A stretch of 64,000 nucleotides of DNA, from the NCBI RefSeq assembly GCF_050320075.1, contig NZ_CP190018.1; one strand, written 5' to 3'. The DNA comes from Escherichia coli. GTDB taxonomy: Bacteria; Pseudomonadota; Gammaproteobacteria; Enterobacterales; Enterobacteriaceae. A program made the translations under genes and the position numbers. The notes below the pieces were generated by a model. That model did no database searches and was not told the DNA's origin. It was given only the letters and a program-made list of their open reading frames with translations. Positions 40,091 to 40,375 of the stretch are shown here, in pieces (position 1 is the first letter of the stretch; the number at the start of each line of letters is the position of its first letter).

Positions 40091-40375
40091 CTATAAAACC
40101 TTGTCTGTCTGGTAGTTCCGCCAGACAGATTTTGCGATTTCTATCCCCATATCCGCCTGTGTGCGGTGTGCTGCCTCTCTCAAGCTCCCGAAATTATCCA
40201 GCATGACGGGCGAACGTGCTGCCTTGTGGATACATTTCGCGCGACGCTTTACTGCCTGTTCGCGCTCCTTATCGGTGTTCACCTGTTGCATGACCTCAGC
40301 CCATCGGGCCGCCGCTCTCCGGTACAGGCCTTTAGCCTCCAGATCTTCCGCTTTGCTGTCGTGAATCATACTCAT
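40091..40375 (-). CDS. PerC-family transcriptional regulator-like protein
   Basis: 94 aa with AEDLEAKGLYRRAAARWAEV, resembling the PerC/Pch signature; start overlaps the upstream gene's stop (ATGA). Confidence 0.55.
   Translation of the reverse strand: MSMIHDSKAEDLEAKGLYRRAAARWAEVMQQVNTDKEREQAVKRRAKCIHKAARSPVMLDNFGSLREAAHRTQADMGIEIAKSVWRNYQTDKVL

Follow-up and report, generated by a model that had tools for sequence, protein, structure and literature searches.

The PerC protein of enteropathogenic Escherichia coli (EPEC) and the PchA, PchB and PchC proteins are activators of LEE1 in the enterocyte effacement locus (LEE) (PMC6265319, PMC11773190), and Pch relieves silencing by H-NS, StpA, Hha and YdgT (PMC4764244). 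PchE ("group 3") has little effect on the LEE and strongly represses csgD and curli independently of Ler (PMC6265319). PerC homologues are listed as common cargo of phage-inducible chromosomal islands (PICIs) (PMC6092414, PMC11773190). The PerC-like proteins of EcCIEDL933 and EcCICFT073 left LEE1 fusions unaffected, and EcCIMP1_025 represses LEE1 (PMC11773190). Another small regulator, RgdR, controls the type III secretion system and motility in E. coli O157:H7 (PMC3378721). Here we describe a PerC-family gene, called perC below, at positions 40091 to 40375 (minus strand) of a 64-kb stretch of E. coli DNA (the window; contig NZ_CP190018.1), where it lies on a small PICI-like satellite. We consider it probable, with moderate confidence, that perC encodes a PchE-type PerC protein, placed at the end of a satellite operon, that shifts host surface and behaviour genes via nucleoprotein complexes.

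Part of this is already known: the gene is annotated in RefSeq, under a name that is correct, and PerC homologues on E. coli PICIs have been described in the literature, so that the finding as such has little significance. The particular protein and the minimal, ProQ-carrying variant of the island are uncharacterised.

Family and branch of the perC product

40091 to 40375, minus strand: PerC-family (PchE-type) gene (open reading frame, PF06069)

The open reading frame (ORF) listing gave an ATG-initiated frame of 94 amino acids (aa) with the translation MSMIHDSKAEDLEAKGLYRRAAARWAEVMQQVNTDKEREQAVKRRAKCIHKAARSPVMLDNFGSLREAAHRTQADMGIEIAKSVWRNYQTDKVL. This is the ORF with the motif AEDLEAKGLYRRAAARW that had been picked out in an earlier note on this DNA; it was found at exactly the same coordinates, and its strand, which the note did not give, is minus. 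RefSeq records with 100% identical DNA name the product 'PerC family transcriptional regulator' (WP_024169836.1, 92 aa). The RefSeq start is the second ATG (40369, 'MIHDSK'), and most homologues in a 54-protein alignment start at the same place. In an ATGA, the first ATG shares bases with the stop codon of the preceding proQ/finO gene; this ATG lies 11 nt past an AAGGAG, compared to 17 nt for the second. Judged from these signals, the start of perC appears ambiguous by two codons, giving a protein of 94 or 92 aa.

The earlier note had called the protein PerC-like and had named the lack of a PerC hit in a profile search as what would refute it. The Pfam PerC model (PF06069) matched over its full length, residues 3-89 aligning to model positions 1-88 of 90 with an i-Evalue of 3.2e-32 and 111.1 bits. 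Among the PHROGs, phrog_994 was matched at 4.3e-36, together with several 'transcriptional activator' phrogs. A database search returned 124 relatives, of which the 120 listed all carry PF06069, and all were within the Enterobacteriaceae (Escherichia, Salmonella, Citrobacter, Klebsiella, Kluyvera, Phytobacter, and Pluralibacter). The alignment of 54 proteins, which included EPEC PerC, a PchA/B/C-type protein, PchE, and the EcCICFT073 and EcCIMP1 proteins, has ten invariant columns (D6, L12, G16, Y18, R19, R20, A22, R24, W25, and D35), and all ten residues are present here. The N-terminal core D..AE.LE.KGLYRRAA.RW is also present, and a length of 92-94 aa fits the family size of about 80-105 aa. 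As for other family members, the carrier is horizontally acquired: the 8.2-kb island is not found at proL of K-12. We concluded that membership in the PerC family is established on sequence grounds.

The same conservation bears on whether perC might be decaying or without function, on an island that is itself degraded. The island is small, has neither a capsid nor an Rpp module, and carries an 'ash' pseudogene according to RefSeq, which would suit decay. Against this, perC is intact and annotated as a coding sequence (CDS) in 60/60 of the best-matching genomes (varied hosts, 95-100% DNA identity), every invariant family residue is retained, and the gene is translationally coupled to the one upstream. 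Decay is contradicted by this conservation and seems hardly credible to us.

Within the family, the protein is 59% identical to PchE (Sakai ECs1588) over 87 residues and 60% identical to the EcCICFT073 protein over 77 residues. The identity is 53% to EcCIMP1_025, 44% to the 104-aa PchA/B/C-type protein, and 41% to EPEC PerC (pMAR2). In a neighbour-joining tree (no bootstrap) the protein stands beside the PchE/CFT073 pair, apart from the clade of EPEC PerC and group-1 Pch; the EcCIMP1_025 clade is separate from it as well. By similarity and by the shared PICI context after ssb, we assign the protein to a satellite-borne PchE-type (group 3) branch. Members of this branch for which tests exist fail to activate the LEE or even repress it (PMC11773190, PMC6265319).

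Among the closest described systems is PchE itself, encoded on Sp7/O-island 51 (EcCIEDL933) of E. coli O157:H7. Besides the 59% identity and the common Pfam family, both genes follow DUF4222(RgdR)-primase-SSB on an island of the PICI type, and the backbone proteins are 62-74% identical. The two islands differ in that the integrases are only 25% identical and the attachment site is the roxA/phoQ locus in Sp7 vs. tRNA-Pro here. Furthermore, a ProQ/FinO gene precedes perC here with no such insertion in Sp7, and a head/portal/terminase module follows downstream in Sp7 where only a cos site is found here. Repression of csgD and curli is a phenotype known for PchE alone (PMC6265319). The EcCICFT073 protein (WP_000233305.1), with 60% identity, follows ssb in the same order and belongs to a PICI that was experimentally mobilised (PMC6092414). 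It differs in being 82 aa long, without the C-terminal WRNY segment, and its island carries capsid and decoration genes, rppA and a lambda/phi80-type cos, whereas the cos of the island here is of the phiP27 type and an Rpp is lacking. EcCIMP1_025 is likewise PICI-borne and 53% identical, with DUF927 primases that are 62% identical, but it falls in another clade, scores 31.1 bits on the NCBIfam ANR model vs. 16.4 for the protein here, and occupies another position on its island. EPEC PerC (pMAR2/pEAF) and PchA/B/C of enterohaemorrhagic E. coli share the Pfam family, the invariant GLYRRAAxRW core, the size, and carriage on mobile elements. They differ in their 41-44% identity, in their setting (the plasmid perABC operon, or downstream of lambdoid lysis genes), and in being LEE1 activators, while most hosts of this island have no LEE.

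The last point was examined by searching all complete E. coli genomes with a combined query, made up of 2,105 nt of DNA specific to the island and 1,000 nt of escV, the LEE marker, from Sakai. The island with an intact perC is found in at least 60 of these genomes, from poultry, pigs, humans, wildlife, water and vegetables; the reference enteroaggregative E. coli (EAEC) strain 042 carries it at the same tRNA. Among the 60 best island-bearing genomes, at least 51 have one matching place only and thus no escV. YZLc1-3, which is one of the nine others, has two matching places even with an island-only query. The LEE is consequently not the usual target of the protein, and with most hosts lacking it the relevant targets must be core-genome loci.

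Could the protein still act on LEE1/ler as a classical activator, on a par with EPEC PerC or PchA/B/C? It shares their Pfam family and invariant motif. An identity of 41-44% is also no bar according to the report, as cited, that EPEC PerC and Pch, only 47% identical to each other, are interchangeable at LEE1 (Porter 2005, via PMC11773190). On the other side are the at least 51 of 60 island-bearing genomes without escV, the reported inertness of its nearest relatives, PchE and the CFT073 protein, on LEE1 fusions (PMC11773190, PMC6265319), and the lack of the long C-terminal extension seen in the 104-aa group-1 Pch. Equivalence to the classical activators is very improbable, and LEE activation is unlikely to be the normal job of the protein. 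The likeness to virulence-activating PerC/Pch regulators that the earlier note had drawn therefore stands as to family (PF06069); a switching-on of the LEE is unlikely, given the PchE-type branch and the scarcity of escV among the hosts.

Predicted fold, ANR resemblance and mode of action

The predicted fold is all-helical, with a three-helix hairpin resembling tetratricopeptide repeats (TPR-like) and a C-terminal helix. No helix-turn-helix (HTH) was found in this predicted fold, so that 'transcriptional activator' would be a family label rather than a demonstrated activity. The model suggests that the protein may act through protein or nucleoprotein contacts, for example with H-NS complexes. 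The NCBIfam ANR model NF033650 aligned over its full length to residues 8-54, which correspond to the confidently predicted three-helix module, at 16.4 bits (E = 0.0061); the curated cutoff for ANR membership is 32 bits, well above this score. The same model gave 18.2 bits for EPEC PerC, 17.9 for PchE, 18.9 for the CFT073 protein, 13.6 for one group-1 Pch protein, and 31.1 for EcCIMP1_025. A weak ANR match is thus family-wide in PerC proteins and is no mark of ANR identity for this one; it suggests a remote kinship of the two families at the sequence level.

Like the proteins of the ANR family (Aar), which are small helical regulators working by protein contacts (PMC11773190), the perC product might work as an anti-activator that binds AraC/XylS-family activators and H-NS and represses virulence regulons. 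The exact coverage of the three-helix module by NF033650 speaks for such a role, and an ANR-type action was proposed for the LEE1 repressor EcCIMP1_025, which comes close to the cutoff of the ANR model with its 31.1 bits (PMC11773190). The score of the protein here is half the cutoff and is not above that of EPEC PerC, a proven activator, or PchE; the protein also has an additional C-terminal segment of ~40 residues and lies far from the EcCIMP1_025 clade in the tree. The occurrence of the island in EAEC 042 is a further point in favour. Strains of the 042 type use the AggR/Aar circuit. On balance we regard an ANR-type role as quite improbable. The family-wide weak ANR match and the predicted HTH-less three-helix fold would nevertheless support a protein-interaction mechanism for a family labelled 'transcriptional activator'.

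For the PchE-type reading that we favour, the following sequence of events may be proposed by analogy with Pch and PchE. Transcription of the island operon would supply the PerC protein, which would then shift host gene expression. It may do so by altering regulatory nucleoprotein complexes, chiefly at promoters bound by H-NS and StpA, or by binding another regulator. Candidate targets are genes for the surface and behaviour of the host, among them csgD/curli, flagella and adhesins; the LEE would not be a normal target. From these characterised relatives we infer how the protein acts (via H-NS or by binding a partner), which genes it targets, and in which direction it regulates them. The earlier note had suggested that host transcription may be reprogrammed by the island, and the precedents of PchE (PMC6265319) and RgdR (PMC3378721) make this plausible.

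Position of perC in the satellite operon

The genes that precede perC on the island are as follows.

40372 to 40908, minus strand: ProQ/FinO-domain gene, 178 aa (Pfam ProQ, 1.7e-24)
40944 to 41369, minus strand: single-stranded DNA-binding protein (SSB) gene, 141 aa (TIGR00621, 61 bits, cutoff 53.95)
41606 to 43741, minus strand: DUF927 primase/helicase (pri-rep) gene, 711 aa (phrog_1139 DNA primase, 1.8e-165; 74% identical to Sp7 ECs1582)
43738 to 44025, minus strand: DUF4222 protein gene, RgdR homologue, 95 aa (62% identical to RgdR/ECs1581, 67% to the CFT073 homologue)
44065 to 44431, minus strand: 61-aa hypothetical gene and Icd-like gene (48% identical to ECs1578 and 66% to ECs1577; RefSeq 'Icd-like')
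45078 to 45269, minus strand: AlpA-family regulator gene, 63 aa (Pfam Phage_AlpA, 6.6e-06)

The FinO-like and SSB-like genes, earlier described as co-operonic with perC, are indeed same-strand neighbours in a layout consistent with an operon. The proQ/finO stop and the ATG of perC overlap, 35 nt separate ssb from finO, and one strand is used throughout. A consensus scan between the primase gene and perC found no convincing minus-strand terminator or promoter, and a promoter scan found promoter-like sites upstream of the AlpA gene (45439-45335). The arrangement fits perC being the last gene of a leftward operon running from alpA to perC. The DUF4222 gene lies directly upstream of the primase gene, with overlapping ends. 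The RgdR homologue and the PerC protein thus give the island a pair of small regulators known for host cross-talk. The minimal island, present also in EAEC 042, keeps both genes with hardly any other cargo, which argues for selection of these small regulators as a component of the satellite itself.

The order DUF4222-primase-(hypothetical)-SSB-PerC is shared with four other contexts. The genes that follow perC vary: a head-portal-terminase module in Sakai Sp7/OI-51, capsid and decoration genes in EcCICFT073, and capsid/portal/HNH/TerL genes behind a 63%-identical homologue on islands found on hundreds of contigs. In a longer yejO-adjacent variant of the island (L016/L017), SSB-ProQ-PerC precedes a Nu1-like gene, after which come a second PerC gene and one with a Panacea domain. 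A Klebsiella homologue is found in a different AlpA/DUF3987 island, and the EcCIMP1 homologue elsewhere on its element.

This constancy raises the alternative that the protein is primarily a satellite life-cycle factor, its host effects being side effects. Such a factor would control or de-silence the late/packaging region of the island or genes of the helper phage, or it would bind a protein of the helper. The slot after ssb and before packaging/cos is constant despite unrelated packaging modules (Sp7, EcCICFT073, L012/L013, L016/L017), perC is kept in a minimal 8.2-kb island with almost no cargo, and its apparent co-transcription with the replication genes would also suit such a role. Set against this, the literature consulted reports no PerC life-cycle phenotype, PerC is variably present among elements of the EcCIMP1 type (PMC11773190), and it is found on only 'some' of the PICIs of E. 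coli (PMC6092414). In addition, the EcCIMP1 gene is far from the replication module, and plasmids and lambdoid prophages have PerC homologues too. We regard a primary life-cycle role as unlikely, though less so than an ANR-type or LEE-activating one. If true, it would change the interpretation of satellite 'virulence regulators'.

A broader form of this idea, about which we are equally doubtful, is that PerC-type proteins belong to the backbone of the enterobacterial PICI replication/regulatory module, as TPR-like adaptors remotely related to ANR proteins and not as virulence cargo. They would then counter H-NS silencing on the island or at helper late genes, or sequester a regulator during induction, and effects on the LEE, curli, and flagella would be by-products. 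The PerC protein here might work together with the co-translated FinO-domain RNA chaperone and the island C4/IsrK antisense RNAs.

The ProQ/FinO-domain gene scored under the cutoffs of both the NCBIfam FinO and ProQ models. It is not found in Sp7, EcCICFT073 or EcCIMP1, and it is present in the longer variant L016/L017. Its product may chaperone the C4/IsrK antisense RNAs of the island, and this FinO-domain protein, carried as it is by a phage satellite, may deserve separate study. The SSB is 66% identical to the SSBs of the Sp7 and CFT073 PICIs. Downstream of perC, no credible gene was found in the 1.3 kb up to the left boundary of the island. A 69-aa ORF at 39825-40034 (minus strand), 57 nt downstream of perC, matches phrog_7206 only weakly (1.2e-06), and the compared PICIs have no homologue of it. 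The additional module of L016/L017 (8102-13459, ~5 kb), which is not in the island of the window, has a Phage_Nu1-like gene that is possibly Rpp/TerS-like, and its SocA_Panacea-domain gene is a candidate for toxin or defence cargo.

Anatomy of the host island

The insertion measures ~8.18 kb relative to the empty proL site of K-12, where the sequence is unbroken from the yejO terminator to the 3' end of the tRNA. Its two ends are marked by GGCACGAGAG, at 38796-38805 and 46979-46988. The remaining features are listed below.

38796 to 38805, no strand: distal att core GGCACGAGAG, left island boundary (comparison with K-12)
39052 to 39132, no strand: cos-like site (80.7% identity to the annotated phage phiP27 cos region)
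39160 to 39295, no strand: second GTCCCAC/GGGACAAG repeat cluster, adjoining cos (repeat scan)
41439 to 41580, no strand: iteron cluster, five copies of GGGACAAG around an AT-rich spacer, predicted origin of replication (ori), directly 3' of the primase gene
44485 to 44572, minus strand: C4 antisense RNA (Rfam 78.7 bits, gathering score 45)
44597 to 44673, minus strand: isrK (Rfam 61.6 bits, gathering score 50)
45523 to 46767, minus strand: tyrosine integrase gene, 414 aa (37% identity to EcCIMP1, 25% to the Sp7 and CFT073 integrases)
46974 to 47050, minus strand: tRNA-Pro(GGG), proL (ARAGORN), with the att core GGCACGAGAG at 46979-46988 in the tRNA 3' end

The island has the hallmarks of Gram-negative PICIs: an integrase with an att site in tRNA-Pro, an AlpA regulator, all CDS on the minus strand, and a pri-rep gene with an adjoining iteron/AT-rich ori. 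No phage structural or lysis genes are annotated in RefSeq or were found in the ORF listing of the island, and no Rpp, TerS or capsid-redirection gene is present on it. From its gene content, the element is a minimal cos-type PICI-like satellite of 8.2 kb at tRNA-Pro(GGG).

Exact GGGACAAG occurs seven times in the window, with 1.4 copies expected by chance, and 7/7 are in the island. The iterons and AT-rich spacer 3' of the primase gene are predicted to form a PICI-type ori layout. Two of the seven exact copies are near the left end (39261-39289), with related GTCCCAC repeats at 39160-39200; this cluster adjoining cos is reminiscent of the P4 ori/crr arrangement.

In the cos-like site, the cosN-like GGGGCGGACA at 39082-39091 matches phiP27 at 8/10 cohesive-end bases, and the flank GTAAAAATTTGAC is identical. 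The similarity suggests that the island may be packaged by phiP27-like HNH-cos helper phages. Phage phiP27 is an Stx2e phage. The cos-like segment is common to hundreds of E. coli genomes.

C4 and isrK are arranged head to tail upstream of the Icd-like gene, in a stretch that RefSeq calls an 'ash family' pseudogene. The 'ash family' protein annotation is probably spurious, and the stretch 44485-44673 is probably an RNA-based immunity/regulatory module.

Immediately left of the island, the yejO autotransporter gene (36102-38693, plus strand) is intact and encodes 863 aa; in K-12, yejO is a pseudogene interrupted by IS5.
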